From the NCBI GenBank assembly GCA_047602645.1, contig JASGGU010000005.1, forward strand, positions 1,533 to 65,532: a DNA stretch of 64,000 nucleotides, read 5' to 3'. This document shows, in pieces, positions 21,816 through 37,379 of this stretch; positions within the stretch are counted from its first letter, which is position 1, and every line of letters begins with the position of its first letter. The notes beneath the pieces were generated by a model. That model worked only from the letters and a program-made list of their open reading frames with translations, searched no databases and was not told where the DNA came from. A program made the translations under genes and the position numbers. The DNA comes from Lachnospiraceae bacterium. Lineage in GTDB: Bacteria > Bacillota > Clostridia > Lachnospirales > Lachnospiraceae.

Positions 21816-21863
21816 GCTGATTTCTCCTTAATCGTACTGATTGCTTCAAATTTTATAATCATA

Positions 21864-21923: not shown

Positions 21924-21950
21924 CGTGTATCTGGCAATCAACCAAACACT

Positions 21951-23348
21951 TTACCAGCCGGCAAGTTCTTTCTGCTGCGCATCAATTGCATTATCTGCTT
22001 CAATTTCAGCAATTGCTTCTTCCGGTGTATATTGACCGGTTCCTACCATACTGAGGATCGTTGCCATGTTGGCGCCCTTGATGCTGGAAAAATACTCCAT
22101 AACAGGTGAAGACGCCTGTTCATTCCATTCCTGTGCTTCCCTAACAGCTGAACTGACATTGTCAGGCAGTTCAATTCCATTTAACATAAATGCACCTGTC
22201 GGGGTTGTCTTTGTGCAGTATTCATCTATCGCTTCCTTTGATGTGAGATACTCCGCAAGTAATAAAGCGAGATCCGCATTCGGAGAATTTTTGCTGATGC
22301 ACCATGCTTCAGGCATCCAGCTTGCAACACCAAGCACTGAGGGATCTTCATCCGGGAGAGGGAAGAAACCCACATTCTCCACTGCCTCAGGGTTTACTGT
22401 TTCGACAGTTGACATAATATTCGTTCTGCAGAAAATATGTGCAGCCGATCCCTCTAATACCGCAAGGGCCGCATCCTCCCAGCTGATCTCGAGCGGATTA
22501 TCATTTTGATATTCATTCTCCCAAATGTCATACATTTTACTCAAGCCGCGCATGTATTCCGGAGAATCATGCAGTTCAAGTTCTTTATTGGTATACTGGG
22601 ATGCAAACTCGGGATTTGCCTGCTGGGCATAATAATACTGTGACAAAAATAATATCTGGCAGCCCGAAGCATTGCTATACTGCGACATTACAGGATCGAT
22701 TTCCGTTGATTCTTTAATCACCGCACAATTTGCCAGAAACTCTTCCCATGTTGCCGGAATAGAAAGGCCTAACTTTTCATAAACCTCTTTATTGTAAAAC
22801 ACACCTGCAACGTTGGACGGTTTGGAAGGAATTCCATAAACAGCACCGCTCTCCTGATCAGTCACAATATCAAGATAGGATCCATTTACTCTTTCTTTCA
22901 TCCAGTCCTCGTTTGAAAGATCATAGCAATTTTCCGCCGGGGACACCGCATCCAATTTGGCACCTACCGAATTCAGCCACATATCCGGAAGATTCCCTGT
23001 TGCAGCTCTTACCAGAATAACACTTTCCATTTCATCTGCATCACTTGATAAATGCTCTACTTCAATATTGCAGCCATACTTTTCTTCAAATGCAGCAAAC
23101 TGCGCATCAAATGAATCCGAGGTACTGTCTGTCACACTATGTGCAATATTTAATGTTACTCCTTCATATGATTTTGTACCCGCCGCATCCGCAGAATCCG
23201 TTGCTGCCGTCTCCTCGCCAGAAGCCTCTGCCGCCTCTGCCGAAGCATCCTCACTGCTATCTGTTGCTTTTGCCTGTGTGTTTCCGCATGCGCAAAGAGA
23301 AACGGTCATTGCTGCTGCTAATAATAATGATAAAGCTTTCTTTTTCAT
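21951..23348 (-). CDS. Extracellular solute-binding lipoprotein (sugar ABC, family 1)
   Basis: The protein starts MKKKALSLLLAAAMTVSLCACG (lipobox). The ATG at 23348 has an AGGAGGG RBS 5 nt upstream, so I prefer it to the longer ORF-track start at 23369. Confidence 0.9.
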   Translation of the reverse strand: MKKKALSLLLAAAMTVSLCACGNTQAKATDSSEDASAEAAEASGEETAATDSADAAGTKSYEGVTLNIAHSVTDSTSDSFDAQFAAFEEKYGCNIEVEHLSSDADEMESVILVRAATGNLPDMWLNSVGAKLDAVSPAENCYDLSNEDWMKERVNGSYLDIVTDQESGAVYGIPSKPSNVAGVFYNKEVYEKLGLSIPATWEEFLANCAVIKESTEIDPVMSQYSNASGCQILFLSQYYYAQQANPEFASQYTNKELELHDSPEYMRGLSKMYDIWENEYQNDNPLEISWEDAALAVLEGSAAHIFCRTNIMSTVETVNPEAVENVGFFPLPDEDPSVLGVASWMPEAWCISKNSPNADLALLLAEYLTSKEAIDEYCTKTTPTGAFMLNGIELPDNVSSAVREAQEWNEQASSPVMEYFSSIKGANMATILSMVGTGQYTPEEAIAEIEADNAIDAQQKELAGW

Positions 23349-23485
23349 ATACCCTCCTTGTTTTTTCATTTTCTCAAAAACTCTTTACACTGTTCATTAT
23401 AACGAAATCAAAAATCTATCACATGGCTTATCAGAAATGGAGACATTTAAAAAAAGAAATCTGTATCATCTTTTTAAGCTGCTCG

Positions 23486-25231
23486 CTATACTTCTAAATA
23501 TGCTCCCTTCATGGGGCTTGCTGCTTTTTCAGCAAACAGTGCCAACACACCATGCTTATATTGGCTTTCTTTTCTTCGCCACCTTCTTTTTCTCTCTATT
23601 AAAATTTCATCCATTTCTTCTTTGCTTTTCCGCATGCCTTGTATACCGATTATTGAAAGAATCCTCTCAGGGATATTCATGTAAATCAGGTCACCATCTT
23701 CCACAAGTGCAATGGGGCCGCCGCTTGCTGCCTCAGGTGAACAATGACCAATCACCGGCCCTGTCGACGCACCCGAAAACCGCCCATCCGTAATTAAGGC
23801 AATACTCTTGCCCAATTCCTTATCCGAGCTTATGGCCTCGGAAGTATAGAACATTTCCGGCATCCCACTGCCCTTTGGTCCTTCATAACGGATAAAAACA
23901 GCGTCTCCGGGCCTTACGTGATGATGCAAAACTGCATTCAGACAGTCTTCTTCACTGTCAAATACTCTGGCGGAAAGTGTAGCAATATGCATCTCCTTTG
24001 GACATGCCGTATGCTTAATGACCGCCCCTTCAGGTGCCAAATTTCCTTTTAGTACTGCGATACTTCCGTCTTCACCCAATGGCCTGTCAAATGAACAGAT
24101 AATATCTTCCTTTGTAATGGAACTGCGATATTTCCTGTTTGCCTGTGCTAATCCTTCTTCGCATCGTTCAAAATATCTATTTTTTTCTAAAATACTCAGA
24201 TTTTCTCCGAGAGTTTTTCCGGTGACCGTCATGACATCCATATGAAGCGTTTCCCGAATCTGCTTCATTATTGCCGGTACCCCACCCGCATAATAAAAGA
24301 ACTCTGCCGGCCATTTGCCGGTAGGCCTCAGATTAAGAATATAGTGTGCTCCGCGGTGCAATCTGTCGAAAGTATCTCCTGTTATTTCTATTCCATACTC
24401 ATGGGCGATTGCCGGAATATGCAGCAGACAATTGGTACTGCCGGATATTGAGGCATGAACCATAATGCTATTTTCAAAGCTTTTCATTGTCACAATATCT
24501 GATGGCCGCATTCCGTTTTTGGCAAGTTCCACGCTTTGCTTTCCGGTCTGATAAGCATATTCCAAAAGCACACTGCTTGTAGCAGGTACAAGAGCACTTC
24601 CGGGAAGCGCAAGGCCCAATGCCTCTGCCATAATCTGCATCGAGCTGGCCGTTCCGATAAAGCTGCATGCTCCGCAGCTTGGACAGGCATTTTCTTTCGC
24701 CCAGGTCAACTTATTTTTATCAATTTCGCCTCTCTCATACATTGCATTGTACATTCCGAGCTGTTCCAGTGTTAACATTTCCGGCCCCGCACACATTGTG
24801 CCACCCGGAAGTGCAATCGAAGGCATATTTATCCTGGCCATTCCCATCAAATTTGCAGGCATTCCCTTATCGCAACTGGCAATATAAACGCCGCCGTCAA
24901 ACGGCGTGGCATTCCCATGAATCTCAATCATATCCGCAATAATTTCCCGGCTTACCAAACTATAATTGATACCGTCTGTTCCCTGACTTTCTCCGTCACA
25001 GATATCCGTACAAAAATACCTTGCTCCGTATCCTCCCGCATCAGCTATACCACGTTTTGCACATTCCACCAGCTGATTCAAATGGGCACTTCCGGGATGG
25101 GAATCACCAAAAGTACTTTCAATCATAATCTGCACCTTTTCCAGGTCCTCCTTTTTCCATCCGGCACCCAGGCGCAGCGGGTCCATCTCCGGTGACTTTT
25201 CTCTCATAATCTGACTGATCAGCATATTCAT
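23486..25231 (-). CDS. IlvD/Edd-family dehydratase (probable sugar-acid dehydratase)
   Basis: The 581-aa ORF contains SCDKGMP, CPSCGACSF and TDGRFSGASTGPVIGHCSPEAA, motifs typical of the dihydroxy-acid/sugar-acid dehydratase family. Confidence 0.88.
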   Translation of the reverse strand: MNMLISQIMREKSPEMDPLRLGAGWKKEDLEKVQIMIESTFGDSHPGSAHLNQLVECAKRGIADAGGYGARYFCTDICDGESQGTDGINYSLVSREIIADMIEIHGNATPFDGGVYIASCDKGMPANLMGMARINMPSIALPGGTMCAGPEMLTLEQLGMYNAMYERGEIDKNKLTWAKENACPSCGACSFIGTASSMQIMAEALGLALPGSALVPATSSVLLEYAYQTGKQSVELAKNGMRPSDIVTMKSFENSIMVHASISGSTNCLLHIPAIAHEYGIEITGDTFDRLHRGAHYILNLRPTGKWPAEFFYYAGGVPAIMKQIRETLHMDVMTVTGKTLGENLSILEKNRYFERCEEGLAQANRKYRSSITKEDIICSFDRPLGEDGSIAVLKGNLAPEGAVIKHTACPKEMHIATLSARVFDSEEDCLNAVLHHHVRPGDAVFIRYEGPKGSGMPEMFYTSEAISSDKELGKSIALITDGRFSGASTGPVIGHCSPEAASGGPIALVEDGDLIYMNIPERILSIIGIQGMRKSKEEMDEILIERKRRWRRKESQYKHGVLALFAEKAASPMKGAYLEV

Positions 25232-25414
25232 CCTCCATTCCCAGAAATAAAAATAGTTAGTATAAAATTATATCTATCAAATTTCTTTTTACATGGTAAA
25301 TCAGAAACAAGCAGATGTAAATAGATTATACAGCTCGAGTACCGTTCTATTAGATAGGGAATTCATCGTAATTCTCAATAGAACAAAAGTGTGCTTCGCC
25401 CGCGCGCAGCTGCG

Positions 25415-25455
25415 CATAAAAAATACTGGATATACCCTAAAGCAGTATATCCAGT
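25415..25455 (-). terminator. Rho-independent terminator of the ECF-1 operon
   Basis: The stem is ACTGGATATA (25425-25434) / TATATCCAGT (25446-25455) with an 11-nt loop. A T-run follows on the minus strand (A-run 25417-25423 on plus). It lies about 40 nt past the ATPase stop. Confidence 0.7.
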
Positions 25456-25496
25456 TTCTTCTCTAATTCTTCTTACTGACAATATGTCAGAAAGAC

Positions 25497-26936
25497 TTAT
25501 TTGCTTTCTGCTGACAGCGACTTATGATAAACAACTTTCCCTTTATCCATAAAGAGGATACTGTCAGCCACCTCGTTTACAAGTTCAAGATCATGGGTAA
25601 TAAGAATAATACTTTTACCGTCTCCGGCAATCTTCTTCAGCAGATCGGCAGTAATCCGCATGCTTGCACCATCCAGCCCGCTGGTCGGCTCATCGAGCAC
25701 AAGAATATCTTTTCCGCTGGCAACCGCCAGTGCCAATAAAAGCCTCTGCTTTTGTCCTCCCGACAGGGAAAGCGGATGACGTTCCAAAAGTCCATCCAGG
25801 CCAACATCGTGTAAGTAACTTGTGATTTCTTCCATCGAAATATCTTTCTCTCGCTTCCCAACACGAAATTCATCCACAACTGCAGAAGTATAAAGCTGAT
25901 AGTCCGTATCCTGCTGCGCAAAAAAAGTGCCTTGGATACGCTGCTTTCTTTTGGATACTTTGCCATTCATACAGATCTGTCCCACCTGCTGGCGGTACAG
26001 TCCGGTAAGCACACGGCAAAAACTGGATTTACCCGCACCGTTTCCACCCATGACAGCAACTATTTGTCCTCTGTCCGCACACAGTCCTGCTTCGTCCAGA
26101 ACCTTCTGCCCGTCAAATGAGAGGGATACCTGCTGCGCCCGCAAACAAGCGGAACCGTCATCCTTGACGCGGCTTCCCGGCGTAATAGCAGGTTCCCTAA
26201 ACAGGCGAAGTCCCAAAGATTTTATTGTTTCCGTATCAAGGCGCAATGCTTCTTCTCGCGTGTATTCGGCTATGATACACCCATCATCCATGACGATCAT
26301 CCGGTCAAACGAGTCTTTCACATAGTGAAGACGGTGTTCAGACAGAATAATCGTCGTTCCCGCCTCCTTCAGACGGAATAAGAGCGTTGACAACCGGGTA
26401 ATCGCATCGTTGTCCAAATTTGCAGTAGGTTCATCAAGCACCAGTACTCTGGGCTGTATGGCACAGGCGGATGCGATGGCAATGCGCTGCTTTTCTCCGC
26501 TGGATAGCGGAAAAATAGGTCGTTCCAATAAACTCTCTACTCCGATTTGAGATACGGTTTCCTTAAGTAACTCCTGCATAGTATTTCGTGGAATTGCCGC
26601 ATTTTCCATACCCAGCACGATCTCATCCGTGGTATTGGCAGCAAAGAACTGGCTGCGCGGATCCTGAAACACACTTCCGATGACGGTTCCAAGTTCGCTG
26701 ACAGGCATGTTTAAGGCGTCCCGGTTATCCAAAAGATACTCTCCGGTAAGTGTCCCCGGATAAAATTGCGGGCAAAGTCCATTGAGTACGCGCGTCAGAG
26801 TGGTTTTCCCACAGCCGCTTTTCCCCGTGAGCAAAATCAATTCTCCGGGTTCTATGCTCAATGAAATCTCTTTCAGCTGCGGCTCTTGATTGCTCTGTTC
26901 CCCATATTGAAATGATAGATTTGTAAGTTTGATCAT
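25497..26936 (-). CDS. ECF transporter fused double ATPase (EcfA-EcfA')
   Basis: There are two ABC cassettes (GKSGCGKTT ... LSSGEKQR ; GGNGAGKSS ... LSGGQKQR). The ATG at 26936 (MIKLTNLSFQYG) overlaps the EcfT stop as ATGA. The longer ORF-track N-terminus lies inside the upstream gene. Confidence 0.9.
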   Translation of the reverse strand: MIKLTNLSFQYGEQSNQEPQLKEISLSIEPGELILLTGKSGCGKTTLTRVLNGLCPQFYPGTLTGEYLLDNRDALNMPVSELGTVIGSVFQDPRSQFFAANTTDEIVLGMENAAIPRNTMQELLKETVSQIGVESLLERPIFPLSSGEKQRIAIASACAIQPRVLVLDEPTANLDNDAITRLSTLLFRLKEAGTTIILSEHRLHYVKDSFDRMIVMDDGCIIAEYTREEALRLDTETIKSLGLRLFREPAITPGSRVKDDGSACLRAQQVSLSFDGQKVLDEAGLCADRGQIVAVMGGNGAGKSSFCRVLTGLYRQQVGQICMNGKVSKRKQRIQGTFFAQQDTDYQLYTSAVVDEFRVGKREKDISMEEITSYLHDVGLDGLLERHPLSLSGGQKQRLLLALAVASGKDILVLDEPTSGLDGASMRITADLLKKIAGDGKSIILITHDLELVNEVADSILFMDKGKVVYHKSLSAESK

Positions 26937-27670
26937 GTCAGCACCCCAAGCATATAACGGTCGGATAGAAAAATCAGCACATAAAGGGCTAGCGTTCCGC
27001 CAAACAAAGCCATATCCTTTCCACAAATATGAACGGGACGATAGCTTATAATCTGATTGTTAAAGCGCACACCCCTCACTGTTACAGACGCAGACAATTC
27101 CTCTGAAATTCGAACAATACGGACAATCAGAGGCAGCAGGATGTATTCCAGAACCTTTGGTAAATGGAAAAGGGTATTCCAAAAACCAATGCCAACGCCT
27201 CTGAAACGCTGTGCATTACGAATCTGCCGGTATTCCTGAGCAACCGTAGGGAAAAAACGAAGCCCAATTGCAACGCCAATACTTACTGTCTTCGGAATCT
27301 TCATGGCATTCAAAGCACCCATAAATGAGCCGGTTGGGGTTCGTGCAAGCAGAATCGCAAACATGAGCGGTATCAGAGCTTTACGCCCCGATACTCCAAA
27401 TGACGCAAGCGTGACCGCTGTTGTATTTCCGGCATTTCCGGAAACCCACCAGATTGCTGCGTGGGCGATCCCGAACAGAAACAGATAAGTAAAAATATAT
27501 CCGAAAAATCCCTTACCCTTAGCTGCGATGAGCTGCCAAAGCAAAGAAACAGCAAACATCACTGCCATGCCATATTCCGTATGTATATAAATTGTTGCGA
27601 TACTTCCGGTTAATATGAGCGCCAGATAAACTCGCGGATCAATCTGAACCTCCCGCTTTGCTGCACTCAT
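26933..27670 (-). CDS. ECF transporter transmembrane (T) component, CbiQ/EcfT family
   Basis: The 245-aa ORF runs from MSAAKREVQIDPRVYL... and has the conserved ...EYRQIRNAQRFRG... region. Its ATG overlaps the S-component stop (ATGA at 27667-27670). Confidence 0.85.
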   Translation of the reverse strand: MSAAKREVQIDPRVYLALILTGSIATIYIHTEYGMAVMFAVSLLWQLIAAKGKGFFGYIFTYLFLFGIAHAAIWWVSGNAGNTTAVTLASFGVSGRKALIPLMFAILLARTPTGSFMGALNAMKIPKTVSIGVAIGLRFFPTVAQEYRQIRNAQRFRGVGIGFWNTLFHLPKVLEYILLPLIVRIVRISEELSASVTVRGVRFNNQIISYRPVHICGKDMALFGGTLALYVLIFLSDRYMLGVLT

Positions 27671-28278
27671 GCAATCCCCGCCGTTTTGAAATATTTCTTC
27701 AGAACTTTGATACCAATGAGATACCCAACTGTCGCCATGGCAAGACAGCAAACCGCGGCAATAAGAACATTGACAGGCGCAGTATAGACCGAAAAAATGG
27801 TATCCATTGTTGCAAGTGCCGTAGTTTCGTCCATACCAAGTCCCATATAGGTTTTCAAAAGCGAATCTCTCATCAGCAGATATACCAGTGTTCCTCCATA
27901 GGTATAAGTCAGCCAATTGAGAAACCAGGGAACAAGAGGGCGCCATTTTTTATCTCGGCCGCCAATCATAACAAGCTCGCTGAGTATGCCGGCAATGAAA
28001 AAAAACAGTGCCGTTGACAGTGTGCCAGAAATGATATAGTAAACAGTAAAGACAAATGGCAGAATACAATACGTGCCGATGCGCGGACTTTTTGCTGTCA
28101 TAAGCACATAGGCAATGCCGGTTATGACAGCGGGGATACCCGCACTGATAAAATAAAGCGCTTTCAGGTTTGTGCTGATGGGGACAACTGTGATCAAAGT
28201 AATAACAAGAATAAGACAGCTAAGCAGGACGCTTAAAACCAATTCCTTAAGGTCAATAAATTTACGTTCGGTATTCAT
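27667..28278 (-). CDS. Putative ECF S component, MptD / Trep_Strep (TIGR02185-like) type
   Basis: The 203-aa polytopic membrane protein ends ...LKKYFKTAGIA. The other two S-like proteins in the window share this tail (KKHFIKAGLV, RKHFEKAGLV). The gene is first in an S-T-AA triplet. Confidence 0.7.
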   Translation of the reverse strand: MNTERKFIDLKELVLSVLLSCLILVITLITVVPISTNLKALYFISAGIPAVITGIAYVLMTAKSPRIGTYCILPFVFTVYYIISGTLSTALFFFIAGILSELVMIGGRDKKWRPLVPWFLNWLTYTYGGTLVYLLMRDSLLKTYMGLGMDETTALATMDTIFSVYTAPVNVLIAAVCCLAMATVGYLIGIKVLKKYFKTAGIA

Positions 28279-28343
28279 AATTAATCTCCTTTTTTATGAG
28301 TGTTTTATAGAATACAGTCTTATTAGACTGGAATTCCAAAAGC

Positions 28344-29573
28344 TTATGCAATCGTGTTTTTTTGCGCTAAAAACGCACTTTCAGGATTTCGTGTACGCAG
28401 TATACAGACAAACCCTACAACAATCAATGCAATGCCTGAATAGAAAAACCAGAGGCTTATGCCTGTCATGCTGCTGAGCGGCCCTGCTGCGGCAAGCCCA
28501 ATTGGATTTGCTATGGTAAAGACAGTCAGCAGCAGGGACATAGCCTTTCCCGATAGTTCCGGGGGTGTCGTTTCCTGTGCATATGCCCAAAACGGGACAT
28601 TGAAAAAGGTCGCCATGCTTCCCATAATGAACACACATAGGAGCAATGCCCAAAACCCGGTGGATGGGAGAATGCCGCCTATGGCAGTGGCGATTCCAAG
28701 GACAATGACGGATAACGACACCATTAAAAATTTCCGCTTCATACCGCCCCATATTCCAAGCAAAAAGGAGGAAAGCAGCATCCCGGAGGCGAAAAATACA
28801 TCAACAAAGCCGTTTTGCAATGCACCGCCTCTAAAATGCGTCCGTACAAGCAGAGGGAACAGAGAGTTGAGCGGCATAAACAAGATGCCAACCATAACAA
28901 CCGGGGGCAGAGCTGCCATCAGCAGCTTATTGCCGGTCAGAGCCCGGATGCCATGCTTCATATCCAGAAAGAGGTGAAGCTCTTCGTTCTGACGGGGGAT
29001 ATCGGGGATTTTCACAAAGCATAGGCAAAGAATAGCGAATACCGCTCCCAATAGATCCACCTGCATGACAGCCGCAATGGGGATAGCTTCCATCAGTACG
29101 GCTCCCAGCATCGGCCCCAGCATGTTGCTGCCGGAAGAAATTAGATTTCCCCAGCCGCCTGCCTTTGTAAGCTGCTCAGTCGGTACCAGTGTCGGAATTG
29201 CAGCACGCATGGCAGGATCATGAAAGGTTGACCCCACGCCGCGCAAAAACAGGATGAGATAGATAAACCATATCGGCGCATCTCCATAAAACAGGAATAC
29301 AAGCGCCAGCATAGTACTGGAAAGCGCCGTCAAGCCATCCGCCAGCATCATCACAGTCCGCCTGTTATAGCGGTCAATCCATACACCGGCAAACGGGCCC
29401 AACAGTGCTGTGGGCAGATACCCAACAATCGCTGCTGTGGTTAGGGTCAGAGAGGATTCCGTTCTCAAGGTCAGATACCAAACAATCGCAAATTGAACAG
29501 CGGCGGAACCAATAATGGACAAAGCCTGTCCCGTATAGATAATGGCAAAGCGTTTTTTCCACTTCTCTTTCAT
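28344..29573 (-). CDS. MFS transporter, MFS_3/DHA3-EntS-like
   Basis: The 409-aa ORF has about 12 TM segments and the motif GPFAGVWIDRYNRRTVMMLAD. Its ATG overlaps the upstream ABC gene stop (ATGA). Confidence 0.85.
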   Translation of the reverse strand: MKEKWKKRFAIIYTGQALSIIGSAAVQFAIVWYLTLRTESSLTLTTAAIVGYLPTALLGPFAGVWIDRYNRRTVMMLADGLTALSSTMLALVFLFYGDAPIWFIYLILFLRGVGSTFHDPAMRAAIPTLVPTEQLTKAGGWGNLISSGSNMLGPMLGAVLMEAIPIAAVMQVDLLGAVFAILCLCFVKIPDIPRQNEELHLFLDMKHGIRALTGNKLLMAALPPVVMVGILFMPLNSLFPLLVRTHFRGGALQNGFVDVFFASGMLLSSFLLGIWGGMKRKFLMVSLSVIVLGIATAIGGILPSTGFWALLLCVFIMGSMATFFNVPFWAYAQETTPPELSGKAMSLLLTVFTIANPIGLAAAGPLSSMTGISLWFFYSGIALIVVGFVCILRTRNPESAFLAQKNTIA

Positions 29574-31345
29574 AGGCCTTTACCTGCTATGGCGGCTGGA
29601 GTTTTTCCCCGAAAGTTCCAGTCCAGGGATTTCTGCTGCATATTCCAAAGCTTTGCATATAAGCCTCCCTGCGAGAGAAGCCCCTGGTGCGTGCCTTGCT
29701 CCTTCAGCTGCCCATCCTCCAGCACGAGAATTCGATCCGCATTCTGCACTGTCTTTAGCCGGTGAGCAATCATGATCACTGTGGTATCCTTCACAAGCTC
29801 GCCGATTGCCCGTTGTACAAGAGCTTCATTTCCGGCATCCAGACTGGCAGTCGGTTCATCCAGCAAGAGAACCGGCGCCTTCTTAAGGAGTGCCCTCGCG
29901 ATGGATATTCGCTGCTTTTCTCCACCAGACAGCGTACTGCCGCCTTCGCCTACCATGGTGTCATACCCGTCCGGAAGTGCTATAATAAAATCGTGACAGC
30001 CTGCTTGCTCAGCAGCTTCCATCATCTCCTCTTCACTGGCATCCTTTCTGCCAAAAAGGATATTCTCTCGAATGGTTTCGTTGAATAAATAAACATCCTG
30101 CAATACCATGGATACCTTCTCCTGCCACAACTCCGGGATCAAGGAGGAAAGGGCTTTTCCGTCAATTAAAATTGTTCCTTCACTCACATCCCAAAACCGT
30201 GTAATCAGCCGCAGGATAGTGGATTTTCCGCTGCCGGAAGGTCCTACGATAGCGGTTAGACCACCGCGGCAAATTTCAAAGGAAATATCCTTCAAAACCC
30301 ACTCTGCGCCCTTGGTATAAGAAAAGTTCACATGGTCAAAGCGAATTTCGGGATTATCTCCCGGCTTTCCATCTCCTGACATTTCCGGCTCCTGCATGGT
30401 GTTATCCAGCCTTTTTGCCGAAACATAGTTATTTCTCAGCATCATCATATTGCTAACCGCCGTAATCACCGGCGTCAATATTTTGGTGCCGATAATAATG
30501 ATGCTGATAAATTCCACGGCTGTGAGGGAACCGCCCATCAGCAGGTAGCCCCCTGCCATACACATCAGGGGCAGACCGAACTGTACGATAGAGGTACATA
30601 AACGTATCAGGCTGCCGGAGCCGCTTTCTACTTTGATATAAGTTTCCATCAGGTGATGATATGCGGTTTTCAGCTTTAAAAAGCCTTCTCCGGTCTGGTT
30701 ATAGCTTTTCAGTGTTTTCATACCGCCCAAATACTCATTGAGGTTAGTTGCCGCCTTATCTCTGGCCAGCGCGATGCAGGCGGCATTTCGGTCCAGCGTT
30801 TTCATGGATGCTGTTAAAATGATTGCCGCAACAGGCAGTGAGATGTAAAACGCCGCCGCCATCAGCGGATTGAAAATAAACATAAAAATTGAGGTAAGCA
30901 CGCAGGAGAAAACTATGCTGAACAACCCGGAAAGTGTGCCGGTCATAGCCTGCTGAATGTTGACAAAATCTCCTGCAAAGTTGTTGATCAACTCGCCTTT
31001 TTCCTTCCCGGAGAAAAAACCAAGGGGTAAACGGCGCAGCTTTTTTACAAATGAAATACGATTCTCTACCGTATGCTCCGCTGATGGCAAGAAGCTGTTA
31101 CTGTAAGCAAAGTATCCAATTACAAACTGAACCAGCGCCAGAACCCCTAAAACACCTGATGTAATCCACATCATTCGAAAGTTCAGGGAATCTGGCTCCC
31201 CAAATGCTCCCGCAACCATGTTAATGACGACATAGATGATAATGGCGGGAAACAAATTGAAAAAATCCTCTAGGAAAAGCCATACCGCAGGGCGAGCCAA
31301 ATGCGTCGGATGACCAAATGTCAATTTCTTCAGTACTTGTTTCAT
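29570..31345 (-). CDS. ABC half-transporter, exporter fold (TMD-NBD), YbtQ-position
   Basis: The 591-aa ORF has an N-terminal 6-TM domain and a C-terminal NBD (GPSGSGKST, LSGGEKQR, LLLDEPT). It overlaps the upstream partner gene by 4 nt. Confidence 0.88.
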   Translation of the reverse strand: MKQVLKKLTFGHPTHLARPAVWLFLEDFFNLFPAIIIYVVINMVAGAFGEPDSLNFRMMWITSGVLGVLALVQFVIGYFAYSNSFLPSAEHTVENRISFVKKLRRLPLGFFSGKEKGELINNFAGDFVNIQQAMTGTLSGLFSIVFSCVLTSIFMFIFNPLMAAAFYISLPVAAIILTASMKTLDRNAACIALARDKAATNLNEYLGGMKTLKSYNQTGEGFLKLKTAYHHLMETYIKVESGSGSLIRLCTSIVQFGLPLMCMAGGYLLMGGSLTAVEFISIIIIGTKILTPVITAVSNMMMLRNNYVSAKRLDNTMQEPEMSGDGKPGDNPEIRFDHVNFSYTKGAEWVLKDISFEICRGGLTAIVGPSGSGKSTILRLITRFWDVSEGTILIDGKALSSLIPELWQEKVSMVLQDVYLFNETIRENILFGRKDASEEEMMEAAEQAGCHDFIIALPDGYDTMVGEGGSTLSGGEKQRISIARALLKKAPVLLLDEPTASLDAGNEALVQRAIGELVKDTTVIMIAHRLKTVQNADRILVLEDGQLKEQGTHQGLLSQGGLYAKLWNMQQKSLDWNFRGKTPAAIAGKGL

Positions 31346-33159
31346 ATGGCTTCGCTCCTTTTCCGCTTAGTAATTTCTTTTTCGATACTCCATGTGTCGA
31401 CCTCGTTTTGAAGCATCCAAAGTTCCTTATATAAGGTGTCCTGCCGCATCAGAGTGTCATGTGTACCTGTTTCCCGAATCTCGCCCCGGCTGAGCACCAG
31501 AATTTGATCAGCCCTTTGGATGCTGGGTAACCGATGGGCGATAATGAGCACCGTCCGGTCTTCAATTAATTGATCAATTGCCTGCTGAATAAGGTTTTCG
31601 TTCTCGGCGTCTGAATAGGCCAATGCTTCATCTAACACAACAATGGGTGAATCCTTTAAAATGGCTCGTGCAATGGCCAGACGCTGTGCTTCTCCACCGG
31701 AAAGTCCAACGCCGCCGCTGCCGATTACGGTATCGTATCCCTTTGGCAGCCGCATAATAAACTCATGACATCGGGCGGCCCTGGCAGCGGCAATTACCTG
31801 TTCTTTGTTCAAAGGTCTGTTCATGGTAATATTGCCGTACACGGTATCTGAAAATATGGTTGTATCCTGAAATACAAACGACACATATTCCATCAGGCGA
31901 GAGGGCATGATATCCCGGATATCCACACCGCCAATAGTAATCTTTCCCGAGGTGACATCCCAAAACCGGGAAATAAGCTGTCCAATCGTGCTTTTGCCTC
32001 CGCCGGACGGTCCCACTAATGCGGTCAGCTGCTTTTGCGGAGCGGTGAAGCTGATGTGGTTCAGCGCCAGCGTATGAAAGGGATCGGCCGTATCCTGATA
32101 GGAAAAGGACACGTCATGAAATTGGACATCAAAAGACTCCGGTACTTTGGGGCTGACCGGTTCGGGCACCGGCTCCATGCGCGTGATTTCGTCGATGTTA
32201 TGTAGCGCAACGGTAATTTCTCCCATGCGGGTACCGTAGTTGACAAGCTCCATAAGCGGAGCGCAAATGGCAGGTATCAATATCAATCCCATAATAACCG
32301 ACAATAAAACCGATGCATTCCCGGGATTACGCCAAATCAGGAACGTACCGACCGGTACCACAACTGCCAGCAAGGAAAGGATTATTGTTTTATAGCCCTC
32401 GTAAAACGGAGCCACCCTCTTGTAGAGCTTCATTTCCCAATTGCCATATTTCTTTGTGGTGTCGCTAAGTCCTCTGGTGATGGTGCCCGTCAGGCCAAAC
32501 AGCTTCACCTCGGCAATTCCCTGTACATATTCCGAAAATGCTCCCGTCATTTGTCCCGATACCGTTGCAAGACCGGTCAAAATATCCTGTCCCCGGCTCC
32601 CGCCCCATACGGAAAGCTGTAGGGCACATGCAATGATAACAGCAACAACGACTGCCAGTGCCAGCCACAAATTCAGACTGCCAAGTCCAAACAGCAGCGC
32701 TAAGACGGCACACGCCGATCCAATCAGATCCGGCAGCAGATGAGCGATGAATATTTCGATTTTCTCGATGCTGTCATCCATGGTCTTTTGCACGCTGCCC
32801 GTAGTATGCTCTGTAAAGAACCCCATCGGCAAGCGCCCCATATGCTCCATAACCCGGATTCGAATTCCGTACAGTACACGGAAGGCAACCTTATGTGCGC
32901 CAAAGCTTCCGAAAAAGGATAAAATTGTATTGAGTAATATGCTGATAGCGGCTGCAATACTCCACAATAAAATCCCGCCGGAGATATCGCCTTGTCCCAC
33001 CTTTGGAAGCAGCAGCCGGGCGATATGATAAACAGATAAGTAGGGTATCATACCGCAAAGCGTGCCAAGGGACATTAACGTACAGCTAAGCACCAGTTTC
33101 CCCTTTCCCTCAGCTGCAATATCAAAGAGCCTGGATAAAACAGGCCTTTTTTCATTCAT
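31342..33159 (-). CDS. ABC half-transporter, exporter fold (TMD-NBD), YbtP-position
   Basis: The 605-aa ORF has a TMD followed by an NBD (GPSGGGKST, LSGGEAQR, VVLDEA). A GAGGAGG RBS lies 7 nt upstream. Confidence 0.88.
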   Translation of the reverse strand: MNEKRPVLSRLFDIAAEGKGKLVLSCTLMSLGTLCGMIPYLSVYHIARLLLPKVGQGDISGGILLWSIAAAISILLNTILSFFGSFGAHKVAFRVLYGIRIRVMEHMGRLPMGFFTEHTTGSVQKTMDDSIEKIEIFIAHLLPDLIGSACAVLALLFGLGSLNLWLALAVVVAVIIACALQLSVWGGSRGQDILTGLATVSGQMTGAFSEYVQGIAEVKLFGLTGTITRGLSDTTKKYGNWEMKLYKRVAPFYEGYKTIILSLLAVVVPVGTFLIWRNPGNASVLLSVIMGLILIPAICAPLMELVNYGTRMGEITVALHNIDEITRMEPVPEPVSPKVPESFDVQFHDVSFSYQDTADPFHTLALNHISFTAPQKQLTALVGPSGGGKSTIGQLISRFWDVTSGKITIGGVDIRDIMPSRLMEYVSFVFQDTTIFSDTVYGNITMNRPLNKEQVIAAARAARCHEFIMRLPKGYDTVIGSGGVGLSGGEAQRLAIARAILKDSPIVVLDEALAYSDAENENLIQQAIDQLIEDRTVLIIAHRLPSIQRADQILVLSRGEIRETGTHDTLMRQDTLYKELWMLQNEVDTWSIEKEITKRKRSEAI

Positions 33160-33180
33160 CTATACGCCTCCTCTTTTTCG

Positions 33181-33198
33181 AGTTAGACAAATCTAACC
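33181..33198 (-). promoter_or_regulatory. Conserved inverted repeat GGTTAGATTTGTCTAACT at the predicted +1 of the ABC/MFS/ECF-1 operon
   Basis: Read on the minus strand. It starts exactly 7 nt downstream of the TATACT -10 hexamer. The same GGTTAGAT-N4-CTAAC element recurs at 40380-40397 and 47159-47176. Confidence 0.6.
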
Positions 33199-33204
33199 GA
33201 GAGG

Positions 33205-33251
33205 AGTATAGCATTTGTTAAATTACGATTCAAGTCCTCGAGCACAGGACT
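33205..33251 (-). promoter_or_regulatory. Promoter of the ABC/MFS/ECF-1 operon with an abutting palindrome
   Basis: On the minus strand: TTGAAT (33233-33228), a 17-nt spacer, then TATACT (33210-33205). The palindrome AGTCCT-N7-AGGACT (33233-33251) abuts the -35 element. Confidence 0.55.
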
Positions 33252-33263
33252 CTATAGATACTA

Positions 33264-33292
33264 TTGACATTTATTATTTGCCTATTTATACT
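33264..33292 (+). promoter_or_regulatory. Sigma-A promoter of the AraC-family gene
   Basis: TTGACA (33264-33269), a 17-nt spacer, then TATACT (33287-33292). A ~90-nt leader follows, containing the tandem repeats AAGATTTTTGTATATT (33301-33316) and AAGATTTTTTATATT (33319-33333). Confidence 0.65.
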
Positions 33293-33387
33293 GATAATGT
33301 AAGATTTTTGTATATTATAAGATTTTTTATATTGTCCTAAACAGTACTATATATTCTAAAATAGAACCTGGAAAGAGGGATACGTAT

Positions 33388-34350
33388 ATGCAATGCTTTT
33401 ACAGTGTATCGGACATGCTGCGTCAATATGAAGAGTGCGGATGGAAGCGGACCAGTATCCGCTATGGGTGTTTATTTGAGCCGCCCGAAGAAGTTGCATC
33501 AGGGCATATTCAGGTATGGGGGAATCCGAAAACCTGCTGTTTTATTGATACAGATATTGTTTTTCATACAGATTTGACAGAGCGGTATTATTACGAGGCA
33601 AAGAGCATTCAAATCACCTTTATTGAGGATATGGCTTTGAGCTATTACCAGAAAAAAACCGAGCGCAACGAGGCACGGTTTGGAGTTTTCTGTTATGTGA
33701 ATAATCTGCCACGCCCATGGTATAAGCGATTTTCTTCCGGCGAAGCACAAAAAGCGTCTACAGTTTATATAACAGATCAGTTTCTTGAATGTACCGGTGC
33801 TGTATTCACGGATTTTCTTTGGAACCGTACAGCTCACGCAGTAAACAATAGGGAAGTATCACTTCCTTTATTGGCTGATATTTGCAGAGAAATCAAGTCC
33901 GCTGATATGAGCAGAGAAGCGTTCTCTTTGTTTTTTCAGGGGAAAGCTTTGGAAGCTGCCGGACTGTTAATAGATTACACACTTTCCTTTGATTTAGAAA
34001 GCTTACCAACGCCGACCTTAAAAGCGAAAAATGCGGCTAAGTCAGCATTACAAACCTTAAACCAATCCTTTGCCCAACCTCCGGTGATTGATGATCTGGC
34101 AAAATCAATCGGTATCAATAAGCAAACCCTTCAACGAGCTTTTCAACAGCTTACCGGCCAAACAATCCACGAATATATCAAAGCAATAAGAATGGAAAAA
34201 TCTATTTCTCTATTAACTGATACGCCAAAGAGAATTGATGAGATCGCCAAAGAAGTGGGATATCAAAGCAAGGGAAATTTTTTTAAGGCGTTTGCGGAAA
34301 CCTTTGGCTGTACCCCAAACGAAATGAGACGCGCTCAATTATCTAAATAG
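33388..34350 (+). CDS. AraC-family transcriptional regulator (YbtA/PchR-like position)
   Basis: The 320-aa ORF has a C-terminal double HTH (PPVIDDLAKSIGINKQTLQRAFQQLTGQTIHEYIKAIRMEKS...GYQSKGNFFKAFAETFGCTPNEMR). It is divergent from the ABC/MFS/ECF operon. Confidence 0.88.
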   Translation: MQCFYSVSDMLRQYEECGWKRTSIRYGCLFEPPEEVASGHIQVWGNPKTCCFIDTDIVFHTDLTERYYYEAKSIQITFIEDMALSYYQKKTERNEARFGVFCYVNNLPRPWYKRFSSGEAQKASTVYITDQFLECTGAVFTDFLWNRTAHAVNNREVSLPLLADICREIKSADMSREAFSLFFQGKALEAAGLLIDYTLSFDLESLPTPTLKAKNAAKSALQTLNQSFAQPPVIDDLAKSIGINKQTLQRAFQQLTGQTIHEYIKAIRMEKSISLLTDTPKRIDEIAKEVGYQSKGNFFKAFAETFGCTPNEMRRAQLSK

Positions 34351-34576
34351 TTAAAAAGGAATATCCCCAACGCTGCAAAAATAACCGTTATGCTGATGTC
34401 CAACGCTATCTTTTGCCACCGCCATCTTATTTCTTGTTGCCTACCTTGGGTGTTTCTACGCCTCTATTCTTGGTACTTGCCTAAGGACTAATCATCGGCA
34501 TTGCCTTTGGCGGAACGGCCACAACCTCCCCCCTTCTGATTCAGGACTCTGTAATTTCCGGTAAAAGAGGTGCGGC

Positions 34577-35007
34577 AGCTTTTTAGTAGCCTTGGCATAT
34601 ACGCCCATGCCCTGATCCAATAATTCCAGCATCTCTTTTGTGACGCCTTTTTGCGGACCGTAAACGTAGGTGGCACCATTAGCCCCGCATAAGGGATTCG
34701 TAGCCTAACGCTGTCAGCATCCCAGTTTTTGTATGTTCGATATAGCCATAGGCAGCTTCGATTCTGTTTCCCAATGGGCCCTTCACACAGAGGCGGACAG
34801 CCTCTCCCGAAAGTCCTTCAATCAGCGCCTCCGTTGTCCCTTCTCCGCCATCCGCAAGCGGCTTTATGATAATTTCTGCTTCCGCGGCATTCAATATGCC
34901 TTCTTTAATCGCTTCGCCGGCTTCCAGGGAAGTCAGGCTGCCCTTAAACGAATCAATCGCAATCACTACCTTCATTTCACTCGGGTTCCTCTCTGGCTGT
35001 TATCTCA
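34577..35007 (-). pseudogene. Decayed partial copy of the glycerate kinase gene plus its upstream leader
   Basis: Colinear nucleotide matches: 34577-34701 to about 12765-12889, 34702-34723 to 13021-13042, and 34724-35007 to 13217-13500. The implied deletions are about 131 bp (between two ATTCGT copies) and 174 bp, and the 3' part of the gene is missing. ORF-track fragments 34488..34679 and 34679..34975 are pieces of this copy. Confidence 0.9.
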
Positions 35008-35094
35008 TTTTCTCTATTGATCTTCAAATATTTTAACAGCCGTTTACACGCAACATCCATATGCGTGCGCTTCTCTAACTGCGGTTCTGCCTGA
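35008..35094 (-). pseudogene. ~87-bp fragment homologous to an internal part of the 1045-aa hydrolase gene
   Basis: It aligns by eye with 18265-18352 (...AACAGCCGTTTGCACGCAACATCAATATGCGTG...CTCTAACTGCAGTTCTGCCTGA), with roughly 10 mismatches. It is joined directly to the glxK-leader copy. Confidence 0.8.
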
Positions 35095-36196
35095 AAGTCT
35101 CCAAGACAATATCCTGAATCTCTTCAGCAATGCGCTTTGCCCTGTTCCGATCTAATTTGATGTTCTCTGCAACCGCAAGCAATTCTTTCATTCCCGGATT
35201 CCTGCCATTTCCATCAATTGTAGTTGCATGCTCCCCGCCAATAGAATTGCTGAAGGTCAGATCATAGGCCGGCGATAAAATCCACCTGCCTTCATCCTTA
35301 CAATACAGGAAAGAAAAGTTTTTTGCATGATCATCCCTGTTATGAGAAAAGACATTGAAGCACATAAGCCGAAACATCTGCTCGACCTGCCTGTAATCGT
35401 TTGTAAGCTGCAAAGTCAGCTGCATTAGAATATGATAATCCAGATTCGGAATCCGATGTGAGGTCTCAAGCAATGCGCTTACTGACAGCATGTGAATTTT
35501 CTGATCTCCATCCCTGTCGAATCGCTTTGTTGCAAAAAATCCCCCATATTTTTTTGAATCTAACAGCTTTGTTTCCGTCATAGGAATGCCGCATTTTCGT
35601 GCACATAAGGAATACTTATATTCCTGCACGCCAATATCATCTTTATCCTGAGAGGATGGGAATTTTATGATCCACTCCTGCCCATCAATCTTATTAAAAA
35701 CCTTCGGTCTTGCACCACCTGAAGACCCTCCCATTTGAAAAAGCACATCCAGATTGTCACTTTCTTTGCTTTCAAAAATATTCTGGCATTCCGCTGCAAG
35801 CTCATCCAGCGAAAGCCGCGACTGCCTAAGAGACAAACTACTTTCCGGTTGGTAGGTTAAGGCTCCCATTCCTGATGCTCCAACAATAGCCAGTCTATCA
35901 ATCGCATGAACCTCTGCCGGATTGATTCTTTTTTTAAGGAGGAGTCTGTCAACTAATAATCGTCCCCATCCGTCTGGCAGACTGTCTGAAAACACCCCAA
36001 ACAAGCCCTCAAAAGGATCATAGCTTTTCGGCAGAAACACTTTTTTTTGCAATGGCAAGGAAAATGGACTAATGGAAAACCCATTACGAATCCATTCATC
36101 CTCATACTCAAATGCAACCCGATGATCCGCAGCTGTCGCAAGGGTTCCTACCTTCTTTTCTCCGAACATGACGCTTAGCGATTTATTTTTGTTCAT
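35075..36196 (-). CDS. hipA: HipA-family serine/threonine kinase toxin (C-terminus replaced by scar sequence)
   Basis: The 373-aa ORF has an N-terminal HipA coupling domain (GTLATAADHRVAFEYEDEWIRNGFSISPFSLPL), a catalytic HNRDDHAKNFSF motif and SPAYDL. The last ~6 codons and the stop lie inside the hydrolase-gene fragment. Confidence 0.85.
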   Translation of the reverse strand: MNKNKSLSVMFGEKKVGTLATAADHRVAFEYEDEWIRNGFSISPFSLPLQKKVFLPKSYDPFEGLFGVFSDSLPDGWGRLLVDRLLLKKRINPAEVHAIDRLAIVGASGMGALTYQPESSLSLRQSRLSLDELAAECQNIFESKESDNLDVLFQMGGSSGGARPKVFNKIDGQEWIIKFPSSQDKDDIGVQEYKYSLCARKCGIPMTETKLLDSKKYGGFFATKRFDRDGDQKIHMLSVSALLETSHRIPNLDYHILMQLTLQLTNDYRQVEQMFRLMCFNVFSHNRDDHAKNFSFLYCKDEGRWILSPAYDLTFSNSIGGEHATTIDGNGRNPGMKELLAVAENIKLDRNRAKRIAEEIQDIVLETFRQNRS

Positions 36197-36464
36197 CGAT
36201 TACCTCCTGAATGGATGAATAGCCCTTCTTAGAAAACAGTTCATCAAAATCGTTTTCATATCCCAGAGCAAATGCAATTTTAATAAGCGAGGATAATGAT
36301 ATCTCCCCTGTCCGTTCGAACCTCTTAATGGAGCCCAAACTCACATCGGAAGAATCTGCAAGCCGTATCTGCGTTATCTTTTTCTCCTTTCTCCTCTCAC
36401 TCATTCGTTTTGCAATTTCCGCATTCATATCCGCAGGAGATTTCAAAAATCCAAAACTATTCAT
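36183..36464 (-). CDS. XRE-type HTH protein, HipB-like antitoxin candidate
   Basis: The HTH reads KKITQIRLADSSDVSLGSIKRFERTGEISLSSLIKIAFAL. The gene overlaps hipA by 14 nt. The start is uncertain: 36464, 36428 or the TTG at 36500, and none has a clear RBS. Confidence 0.75.
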   Translation of the reverse strand: MNSFGFLKSPADMNAEIAKRMSERRKEKKITQIRLADSSDVSLGSIKRFERTGEISLSSLIKIAFALGYENDFDELFSKKGYSSIQEVIDEQK

Positions 36465-36544
36465 GATTATTATTTTAACTGTTTTTCTAATTAAAGTCAA
36501 GTTTTGGTTAATATATTAACTATTTCGATTTATCTATTGCACTA

Positions 36545-36733
36545 TTATTTATCTTGCTCCCGCACAATTTCATATTGCAACATTTCATAATGCAGCTTGC
36601 TGCCCTCTGCAATCTCTTCCGGCAGAAGCGCTCTGGCAACAAGCTTCAGCCCTTCCTCTTCCCGATCGGTTCTGCGCAGGTGCGCATAATCACCGTCAAT
36701 CATCTCAACAACATATTCCTTTGGTCCCATCAT
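36545..36733 (-). CDS. DUF3006-like small protein
   Basis: The 62-aa ORF reads ...VVEMIDGDYAHLRRTD...LLPEEIAEGSKL..., matching the DUF3006 pattern as I remember it. It lies immediately downstream of the DUF4317-like gene. Confidence 0.6.
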   Translation of the reverse strand: MMGPKEYVVEMIDGDYAHLRRTDREEEGLKLVARALLPEEIAEGSKLHYEMLQYEIVREQDK

Positions 36734-36755
36734 TTTTTAATCCTTTCTTCGTCCG

Positions 36756-37379
36756 CTATGCCAACAGGATGTCCTTAATACTTCTTTGATCTGATTCCTC
36801 CGCCTGATAGACATCCATCCTGTGGCAGTCACTGCTCCTATCCTTAAACGCAGGGAACAGGAAACCGCATTCCGGAGTTCCCGCCTCATAATCCCCGCTC
36901 ACAGGGCAGACAGCACCGATCAGAAAGGAATATACTTCCTCTGATTCCCACTGGCTTTCTCCATCACTGCCCTTCAGCGGAACATCATAATTCCCATAAA
37001 AAATATAGACTGCATATGATTTTGACGCCTTATATTTTTCTCCGAAGGTTTCATAAAACACATCCAGCAGCGCATCATTCTTCAATTCACAATCCTTAAG
37101 AGCCATAAGAAGTGTCCACATGCTCCCCGGCTTTTCATCCTCCGGACGAAAGACCTCCTCTTTCAACTGCACGTTCGTCTCCGAAAAAGGGATCGCCTTG
37201 GCAATATCAAGATTACTCTGCCGGTCTTTTCCCGATAACTTCTGAAAATGCTGATTAAAGGTTCCGTCCACATACCCCTCTTCATCAAAATAAGCGCCGG
37301 CAATCCGGCTGAAGCAATTTCTCTTTAAAGTCATGCGCCGCGTCAGCTCCAGCATGTCCTCTCGATTGATCTTCCCCAT
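36756..37379 (-). CDS. DUF4317-like protein
   Basis: The 207-aa ORF contains YDVPLKGSDGES...SEEVYSFLIGAVCPV and GFLFPAFKDRSSD, which resemble the DUF4317 family. It has an AAGGAG RBS. Confidence 0.6.
   Translation of the reverse strand: MGKINREDMLELTRRMTLKRNCFSRIAGAYFDEEGYVDGTFNQHFQKLSGKDRQSNLDIAKAIPFSETNVQLKEEVFRPEDEKPGSMWTLLMALKDCELKNDALLDVFYETFGEKYKASKSYAVYIFYGNYDVPLKGSDGESQWESEEVYSFLIGAVCPVSGDYEAGTPECGFLFPAFKDRSSDCHRMDVYQAEESDQRSIKDILLA

Follow-up and report, generated by a model that had tools for sequence, protein, structure and literature searches.

The question raised by the locus described here is what is transported by an operon in which two ATP-binding cassette (ABC) half-transporters of the exporter fold, a major facilitator superfamily (MFS) permease plus an importer of the energy-coupling factor (ECF) type are encoded together, divergent from the gene for an AraC-family regulator. 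The locus lies at positions 25497-34350 of a stretch of 64,000 nucleotides from a Lachnospiraceae bacterium (GenBank assembly GCA_047602645.1, contig JASGGU010000005.1, positions 1,533 to 65,532), and this whole stretch is referred to as the window. An earlier note on this DNA had proposed that the locus combines two importers for a metallophore or metal chelate and that it parallels the YbtA/YbtPQX genes of Yersinia. The explanation that we now regard as probable, by a modest degree, is that the locus is a member of a conserved transporter module linked to metal starvation, which consists of an AraC regulator, an exporter-fold ABC pair and a dedicated ECF importer of the MptD type. The module has here, in addition, an optional MFS pump resembling Mef and EntS. 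The components of the locus are as follows.

33388-34350, plus strand: divergent AraC-family regulator (AraC1), 320 aa, matching HTH_18 (83 bits) and HTH_AraC (54 bits)
31342-33159, minus strand: half-transporter ABC1 of type IV (exporter fold), 605 aa, ABC_membrane and ABC_tran (Pfam), both ATPase motifs canonical
29570-31345, minus strand: partner half-transporter ABC2, 591 aa, ABC_membrane and ABC_tran (Pfam)
28344-29573, minus strand: MFS permease, 409 aa, MFS_1/MFS_3 (PF05977)
28315-28330, minus strand: hairpin CAGTCT-AATA-AGACTG with a weak T-rich tail, inside the gap between the MFS and S genes
27667-28278, minus strand: S component (S1), 203 aa, PF09605 (Trep_Strep), of the MptD/Trep_Strep family
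26933-27670, minus strand: EcfT coupling subunit, 245 aa from the overlapping ATG, CbiQ family (PF02361, 51 bits)
25497-26936, minus strand: fused EcfA-EcfA' double ATPase, 479 aa, two ABC_tran domains, matching the ECF_ATPase_1 and ECF_ATPase_2 models at 285 bits each
25425-25455, minus strand: intrinsic terminator, a 12-bp stem followed by the T-run ATTTTTTATG, which closes the operon

The transporter operon is a single unit with one promoter, one terminator and translationally coupled genes. The domain assignments of all of its proteins are borne out by Pfam and NCBIfam, and ATGA overlaps on the minus strand are present at four junctions (31342-31345, 29570-29573, 27667-27670 and 26933-26936). 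The gap between the MFS and S genes is 65 nt, and the hairpin within it may act as a partial terminator or a processing site. The gene order, the four overlaps, the gap with its hairpin and the divergent AraC gene were all reproduced on re-examination, and the assignment of the S component was also upheld in searches with hidden Markov models, where S1 scored 85 bits with PF09605 (cutoff 28.7) and 74.7 bits with TIGR02185, slightly below the cutoff of 76.45; an NCBI protein 100% identical to S1 is named an MptD-family S component. Pfam scans of the large open reading frames (at least 150 aa) across the window, which revealed sugar-utilisation loci, two-component systems and further transporters, agree with the earlier statement that no biosynthetic genes are present, as no genes for non-ribosomal peptide synthetases, polyketide synthases or other metallophore-biosynthesis proteins were found in them.

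The description of this operon in the earlier note as "fused" is misleading, since the operon type is conserved and the MFS gene is an optional, recurrent extra. Related loci, numbered L001-L027, came in part from genome and metagenome scans with S-component patterns (2 and 4 loci, respectively) and from a family alignment of 109 sequences, which led to 15 proteins, and they constitute a sample without Streptococcus, T. denticola or mycobacterial loci. In every relative of S1 that was placed on a contig, a divergent AraC gene was found together with the order ABC-ABC-S-T-AA (the ABC pair, the S component, EcfT and the double ATPase), and this set recurs in about 10 clostridial loci. The identities of S components from related loci to that of the window are as follows.

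L003 and L004: 74%
L006 to L008: 55%
L002: 52%
L010: 51%
L013: 47%
L011 and L012: 39%
L019: 38%
L024: 33%

The same genes are seen in other arrangements outside this set. In Paenibacillus elgii the AraC gene is followed by S-T-AA-ABC-ABC, with the genes overlapping, and in Enterococcus raffinosus the gene order is ABC-ABC-S-T-AA. One locus (L023) has an AraC gene, two S genes and one ABC half-transporter; another (L022) has its module set carried by a mobile element; and stand-alone S-T-AA modules are present in Carnobacterium, in Treponema vincentii and in the window itself. In 7 related loci the AraC protein matches AraC1 along its whole length, at 37-53% identity. Best matches between the ABC pairs are reciprocal, each protein being 39-45% identical to its orthologue versus 31-34% to the other partner: the orthologues in Paenibacillus and Enterococcus are, respectively, 43% and 39.5% identical to ABC1 and 42% and 39% identical to ABC2, and ABC1 scores 412-527 bits against first subunits as compared with about 280 bits (31-32% identity) against second subunits, the reverse being the case for ABC2. 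Because the matching is subunit-specific and reciprocal, the ABC proteins of the related loci are orthologues, beyond mere membership of one family, and such pairs are present in 10 or more of these loci. As the combination recurs with orthologous proteins and in permuted order in Clostridia, Paenibacillus and Enterococcus, these comparisons support the view that the locus belongs to a conserved operon type, rather than being a one-off fusion, and that the ABC pair and the ECF module are probably coupled functionally. The degree of conservation is not uniform within the operon. The comparison with L006, L010 and L002 gives 71-82% identity for ABC1 and the ATPase and only 50-55% for the S and T proteins, whereas with L003 the pattern is inverted (S 74%, T 65%, ABC1 72%, AA 61%). 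These discordant identities suggest that the S/T pair either evolves faster or is swapped from one operon to another, with the ABC pair and the ATPases remaining as a set.

The module family is functionally unsolved, and it is already present in the literature as two partly studied systems. One of these is SP1433-1438 of Streptococcus pneumoniae, a single co-regulated unit made up of genes for an AraC regulator, two 'multidrug-like' ABC proteins and the S, T and A components of an ECF transporter. The chelator TPEN induces it more than 100-fold in a manner that requires the AraC regulator; the induction is suppressed by zinc or cobalt and barely by iron, and deletion alters cellular manganese, iron and zinc, the deletion strain being reported to contain more zinc (10.1101/367086). 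An SP1434 mutant was as sensitive to antibiotics as its parent (10.1101/367086), and the pneumococcal S component is annotated as belonging to the MptD family (PMC8577857). The placement of the AraC gene beside two exporter-type ABC genes, followed by genes for the ECF S, T and ATPase components, is the same as in the window; however, the pneumococcal system has no MFS gene, and its control by limitation of zinc or cobalt was measured, which for the window would only be an extrapolation. The other system is mptABCDEF of Mycobacterium avium subsp. paratuberculosis, in which the 'IrtAB-like' mptABC genes are joined to the ECF-type mptDEF genes (PMC4298942, PMC4132290). Here mptABC is repressed by Zur/FurB and is induced by zinc starvation, not by iron starvation (PMC4298942). 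The account of this island in the earlier note was right as to the joining of mptABC with mptDEF, but the metal found there is zinc rather than iron. Like the window, the mpt locus has exporter-type ABC genes beside an MptD-type ECF set, the one that gives the family its name; it differs in being actinobacterial, in lying in a pathogenicity island with siderophore-synthesis genes, in having three ABC genes instead of two, and in being under Zur boxes, where the window has an AraC gene and the palindrome described below. A third system of relevance is LhaSTA of Staphylococcus lugdunensis, which resembles the window in its dedicated S-T-A ECF module and which imports a metal chelate, viz. haem, and is induced by metal limitation (PMC7299338). 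LhaSTA is Fur-regulated, however, and has neither an ABC pair nor an AraC gene. Compared with the described systems, the extras of the window locus are its Mef(B)-like pump, an island of three ECF modules and a leader palindrome occurring across phyla, of which the last was not found described.

Links to transition metals are also present in the neighbourhoods of the related loci. A gene for a DtxR/MntR-like protein overlaps or comes after the ATPase gene in three of these (L006, L010 and L024), and near L023 are a gene set for a heavy-metal P-type ATPase and two genes of the Fur family. The operon of Enterococcus raffinosus stands directly after a ZnuA-ZinT gene of the AdcA type (adcA), the region concerned being L027 4255-6500, and this gene is preceded by AATCGTAACGATTACGATTT, a near-consensus Zur box. 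In Paenibacillus a perfect Fur box (TGATAATCATTATCA) is located 78 nt ahead of the AraC gene. Paenibacillus, Enterococcus and Carnobacterium also have Fur-like boxes of the 7-1-7 type, TGAGAAT-N-ATTCTCA, in front of their ECF or ABC operons, at the following sites among others of the kind.

L026 (Paenibacillus elgii), 8352-8366 and 9949-9963: 7-1-7 boxes
L021, 9855-9869: 7-1-7 box

Taken together, the relatives favour zinc no less than iron. Thus, the reading of the locus in the earlier note, as one for uptake of a metallophore or metal chelate, has gained from the relatives and the literature as regards coupling and the link to metals, and has lost its specific parallel with YbtA/YbtPQX, for reasons that are considered below.

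The region between AraC1 and ABC1 is a divergent spacer of 228 bp in which sigma-70-like promoters stand back to back. Its elements are as follows.

33255-33268, minus strand: conserved box GTCAAYAGTATC, about 70 nt upstream of the palindrome, overlapping the -35 element (TTGACA, 33264-33269) of the araC promoter
33205-33233, minus strand: sigma-70-like promoter of the transporter operon, TTGAAT, a 17-nt spacer and TATACT, with a TG extension
33182-33197, both strands: palindrome GTTAG-N6-CTAAC, 7 nt past the -10 hexamer and 22 nt before the ABC1 start codon

Equivalent -35/-10 pairs are present in related loci, and the palindrome and the GTCAAYAGTATC box are the two best-conserved elements of the divergent region. 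The box, which is the second most conserved 14-mer of that region (9 loci) and stands 70-72 nt from the palindrome throughout, is a candidate AraC site, or else merely a shared promoter element. The palindrome is present in three exact copies in the window (33182-33197, 40381-40396 and 47160-47175), where about 0.8 would be expected even with one mismatch allowed, and the second and third copies immediately precede the second and third MptD-type ECF modules of the window. Beyond the window, 17 more exact copies were found at the corresponding leader positions of 13 related loci, or about 12 after the merging of near-duplicate contigs. The exact palindrome at the matching leader position is seen in L001-4, L006-8, L010, L013, L019, L023 and L024, and also in Treponema vincentii (L025), a member of another phylum, where it leads an AraC-linked S-T-AA module (9967-9982). 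One further copy in L019 (2180-2195) is upstream of a gene for a methyltransferase-MarR fusion. No copy is present in 147 kb of E. coli control sequence.

Two interpretations of this palindrome have to be considered. Its spacer is free in sequence and constant in length, being 6 bp in 20/20 copies. The first flanking position is complementary in 14/15 copies (G-C, A-T, T-A and four G-T, with no A-C), and four or five copies lengthen to arms of 12-16 bp whose sequences are unrelated. Because its half-sites are fixed, its spacer is free and it is positioned over the transcription start, we lean moderately towards the view, which is based on sequence comparison, that it would be the operator of a dimeric repressor rather than a 5' mRNA hairpin; however, the complementary flanks and the presence of G-T pairs keep the latter reading alive. 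The DtxR/MntR-like proteins encoded in the operons of relatives are candidates for the repressor. The consensus of the DtxR/IdeR iron box is a 19-bp palindrome, TTAGGTTAG(C/G)CTAACCTAA, with a 1-bp centre (PMC7762939, PMC7174319). Its inner half-sites are GTTAG and CTAAC, as in the window, but they are spaced by 1 bp in the iron box as against 6 bp in the window palindrome, which therefore does not conform to that consensus. The palindrome may mark out a regulon and, being without an Rfam match, appears not to have been described before: Rfam 15 families gave zero matches at E<=1 over 24500-35500, which includes the leader and the intergenic regions, and this counts against reading the locus as a cobalamin or other riboswitch-controlled vitamin system. 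A leader hairpin sequestering the ribosome-binding site (folding z = -2.3) was considered and dropped, as its 5' arm overlaps the -10 hexamer (33205-33210) and is probably not transcribed.

The operon contains one of three MptD-type ECF modules in the window, each of which is led by an exact copy of GTTAG-N6-CTAAC. The features belonging to the other two are as follows.

40464-41456, minus strand: second AraC-family gene, which precedes ECF-2 on the same strand
37479-40341, minus strand: ECF-2 (S2-T2-AA2), with S2 at 39739-40341 (PF09605, 164 bits) and AA2 at 37479-38912
44312-47138, minus strand: ECF-3, with S3 at 46518-47138 (PF09605, 197 bits), T3 at 45777-46517 and AA3 at 44312-45763

The sensor domain of the second AraC protein is closer to that of the Paenibacillus AraC protein (29% identity over 275 aa) than to that of AraC1, and neither an AraC gene nor an ABC pair adjoins ECF-3. 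Identities among S1, S2 and S3 amount to only 19-31%. A profile search of the PDB with the S family gave no significant structure, and no conserved His/Cys cluster is seen in the family. Due to the lack of such a cluster and the great difference between the paralogues, a bare ion is unlikely to be the cargo of these ECF modules. As a separate observation, a copy with two mismatches of the 7-1-7 box described above is located upstream of ECF-3 (47227-47241).

Based on these results, and by analogy with the described systems, the following mechanism can be proposed. Scarcity of a transition metal would switch the operon on, with zinc best supported on account of the published systems, and iron or manganese suggested by the regulators of relatives. 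Induction may consist of the relief of a repressor bound at GTTAG-N6-CTAAC over the transcription start, in combination with activation by the AraC protein, which would function as an activator in the manner of SP1433. The ECF module, a dedicated one of group I, would then serve to import, with high affinity, an organic metal chelate or some metal-related micronutrient. The ABC pair and the MFS pump, by a lean that is weakly held, would move the same class of ligand outward, recycling emptied or foreign chelator.

If the ABC pair instead moves its ligand inward, then both transporters are importers, and a pair of the YbtPQ/IrtAB kind together with the ECF module would import a foreign metallophore obtained by scavenging, with the AraC protein as its sensor, essentially as the earlier note had proposed. 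This is unlikely, in our judgement, although it has several observations in its favour. Over 546 aa, ABC1 and YbtP show 33% identity, and ABC2 and YbtQ show 31% over nearly the full length. Among solved half-transporters, ABC1 in full length scores best with YbtP (277 bits), YbtQ (274) and IrtA (261), ahead of MsbA (248) and Sav1866 (245), and by its membrane-domain profile the top match is IrtA (72.8 bits), followed by MsbA (59) and YbtP (54.6). The known system of this kind is IrtAB of M. tuberculosis; IrtA, although the nearest solved structure to this domain, has a siderophore-interaction domain that ABC1 is without. Of the two Enterococcus proteins, ABCa has YbtP as its preferred match and ABCb has YbtQ. 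Further, the motif W-x9-W (L/M-W-x9-W) ends the nucleotide-binding domain in ABC1 (about 31345-31440) and in ABC2 (about 29573-29670), and it is seen also in the Paenibacillus, Enterococcus and L024 orthologues and in YbtP and YbtQ, the comparison being limited to these proteins. The pneumococcal SP1434 mutant, which lacks an antibiotic phenotype, and the window, which is without biosynthesis genes, also suit a foreign metallophore. However, ABC2 is not separable from exporters: in full length it scores 270 bits with an EfrCD chain, 263.5 with Sav1866 and 262 with YbtQ, and its membrane-domain profile, with ComA at 69.6, TM288 at 65.5, YbtP at 65.5 and BmrA at 65 bits, gives no discrimination. 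The score margins are small in general, and in NCBIfam the ABC proteins match most strongly with the models of MsbA and of multidrug or peptide exporters. Hence, when the half-transporters are examined for the grouping with drug or peptide exporters that the earlier note had set against its own proposal, no confident grouping with exporters is obtained, but neither is one obtained with known importers; only the membrane domain of ABC1 leans, by these scores, toward IrtA, and ABC2 does not.

The parallel with the Ybt system of the Yersinia high-pathogenicity island fails in most of its parts. For these comparisons the references for YbtA, YbtP, YbtQ and YbtX were taken from E. coli CFT073. The two loci resemble each other in having a divergent AraC gene of the same length, two half-transporters and then an MFS gene, and the ABC proteins are 31-33% identical and have the W-x9-W motif in common. 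The window differs in that the sensor domain of its regulator is unrelated, its MFS protein is of another subfamily, a Fur box is absent, no siderophore biosynthesis or receptor genes are linked (Pfam scans) and an ECF module is present. AraC1 consists of a C-terminal double helix-turn-helix (HTH) and an N-terminal sensor domain of about 210 aa, for which no Pfam match was found even at E<=10, the sensor domain of YbtA being likewise without a Pfam domain. BLASTP aligns AraC1 with YbtA over the C-terminal 144 aa only, at 24% identity, and no homology between the two sensor domains was detectable by hhalign (probability 0.6%), so that only the HTH half is common to the two proteins. A single-sequence AlphaFold model of AraC1, with a predicted local distance difference test score of 36.8, was too poor for a fold search. 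The MFS protein has no similarity to YbtX beyond a local match of 26 aa (28.5 bits), and YbtX itself has no MFS_3 match. Its best NCBIfam model is Mef(B), at 522.8 bits, which is below the curated cutoff of 800, the EntS model giving 99 bits, and it is 57% identical to plasmid-borne Mef(B) over 97% of the length. Control of the Yersinia type by Fur is also not indicated, as a Fur box was not found in 33160-33387 with up to 3 mismatches, and window scans gave neither a Fur nor a Zur box in the relevant promoters. The analogy with Yersinia is therefore weak and, at the level of sequence, appears to be mostly positional.

Concerning the direction of transport by the ABC pair, export or recycling is tentatively preferred here, import is possible but somewhat less so, and some function other than these is quite unlikely. 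Most type IV ABC pairs are exporters, and this general prior for the fold is one reason for the lean. The other reasons are that the companion MFS protein is from an efflux family and is patchy in distribution, as would be expected if the ABC pair already exports; that stand-alone MptD ECF modules exist, due to which the ECF part should be a self-sufficient importer and two importers for one ligand would be redundant; and that the pneumococcal deletion strain was reported with more zinc, not less. These same observations, together with the failure of the YbtA and YbtX parallels, also stand against the two-importer proposal. The distribution of the MFS gene is as follows: an orthologue is present in the same slot in L001 and L010 (in L010 with 74% identity, where the ABC pair is 75-80% identical), another in L019 (44% identity) is placed after the ATPase gene, and the gene is missing from all other related loci examined. 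That it recurs in two different positions speaks for a functional tie to the operon, whereas its patchiness argues that it is dispensable.

Returning to the explanation in terms of a metal-starvation module with an ECF importer, it must be recognised that several observations weigh against it. The absence of Zur and Fur boxes from the window promoters, noted above, is one of these, and another is the absence of a DtxR-like gene, as the DtxR-like and methyltransferase-MarR genes of relatives gave zero tblastn matches in the window. The metals implied by the relatives (zinc, iron and manganese) disagree with each other, and the ligand is entirely hypothetical because no chelator biosynthesis genes are linked. 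The tie of the window to SP1433-1438 and MAP3731c-3736c rests on family assignment and gene order, the nearest sequence bridge to SP1433-1438 being provided by Enterococcus, where the ABC pair has 39% identity with that of the window. As regards the export lean in particular, it is opposed by the fact that ABC1 is closest to known exporter-fold importers and by the W-x9-W motif that the pair has in common with YbtP/Q.

It may also be asked whether metal scarcity could be connected with the locus in another manner. If the ECF module imports a cofactor or precursor whose synthesis requires the scarce metal, and the ABC pair carries out an unrelated housekeeping export, then the response would be one of metal-sparing salvage. 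ECF S components are classically carriers of vitamins, the S components here are without conserved His/Cys, and the induction of the published homologues by zinc starvation would fit a sparing response. However, this leaves unexplained why the coupling to the ABC pair is conserved and why one island has three very different S paralogues (19-31%), and no riboswitch (Rfam, 24500-35500) or cofactor-pathway gene is linked; we therefore consider it improbable. Lastly, that the locus is a drug or toxin efflux operon, in which the ABC pair and a Mef-like pump are controlled by an AraC sensor in the style of MarA/Rob and the ECF module is an incidentally co-transcribed vitamin importer, would agree with the 57% identity of the MFS protein to Mef(B), with the MsbA and multidrug/peptide exporter models as top NCBIfam matches of the ABC proteins and with the domain-level resemblance of the AraC1 HTH to Rob, SoxS and RamA, but it is very improbable, as chance would not maintain the ECF module and the ABC pair together across classes, in permuted order and with translational coupling, the MFS gene is missing from most loci, the neighbours and boxes of relatives belong to metal and not to drug regulators, and the antibiotic sensitivity of the SP1434 mutant equals that of its parent.

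The significance of the metal-starvation module lies in the fact that its family is without a known substrate; it is induced by chelation in the pneumococcus and is part of an island specific to M. paratuberculosis. The retention of the ABC-ECF coupling from Clostridia to Bacilli, beside regulators of zinc, iron and manganese, makes it a testable hypothesis at the level of the family, and the leader palindrome provides an experimental handle for identification of the regulator and prediction of the regulon. A much broader interpretation, that the MptD-type ECF importer, alone or with a YbtPQ/IrtAB-like pair, is a widespread and unrecognised route for chelates and that the palindrome is a new signal dedicated to it across phyla, is doubtful at present. 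If it is true, then this route for the traffic of organic metal chelates spans Gram-positive gut and oral bacteria as well as spirochaetes, and the palindrome would be an operator, bound by a DtxR/MntR-like repressor, in which the 6-bp spacing is novel, or else a 5' hairpin of the RNA. The MFS protein is of interest in its own right, as it is closely related to Mef(B), a macrolide pump that is tracked in the clinic, and bears on the origin of this resistance gene and the native role of the pump. Mef(B) of E. coli plasmids is its best NCBIfam match; it differs from Mef(B) in scoring under the cutoff of that model (523 vs 800) and in its location inside a metal-linked transporter operon. Operons of this type in gut Clostridia encode proteins close to Mef(B) and might have a connection with the source of the resistance gene.

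Some other features of the window may be noted. Between positions 26000 and 34000 the G+C content is 0.455-0.49, as compared with 0.35-0.45 across the remaining window, and the GC skew, otherwise strongly negative, is relaxed there; both features are compatible with acquisition of the operon from elsewhere. The region between AraC1 and ECF-2 (35075-37379) contains a gene for a HipA-like kinase toxin (35075-36196), a small upstream open reading frame and a DUF4317 gene. Beyond ECF-3, a small open reading frame on the plus strand (47322-47500), which was read manually, encodes an HTH-like protein of about 60 aa, and beyond it are a two-component system and FtsX/MacB-type ABC genes (47508-51923). 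A similar set of two-component system, FtsX and ATPase genes is present at 6716-12284. The transporter island is flanked by two paralogous clusters for utilisation of sugars (rhamnosides), at 13639-25231 and 52019-63970, each of which encodes a fusion of a response regulator with AraC, a histidine kinase, a glycosidase of the rhamnosidase type (GH106-like or GH78), two permeases, a binding protein and a dehydratase of the IlvD/Edd family.

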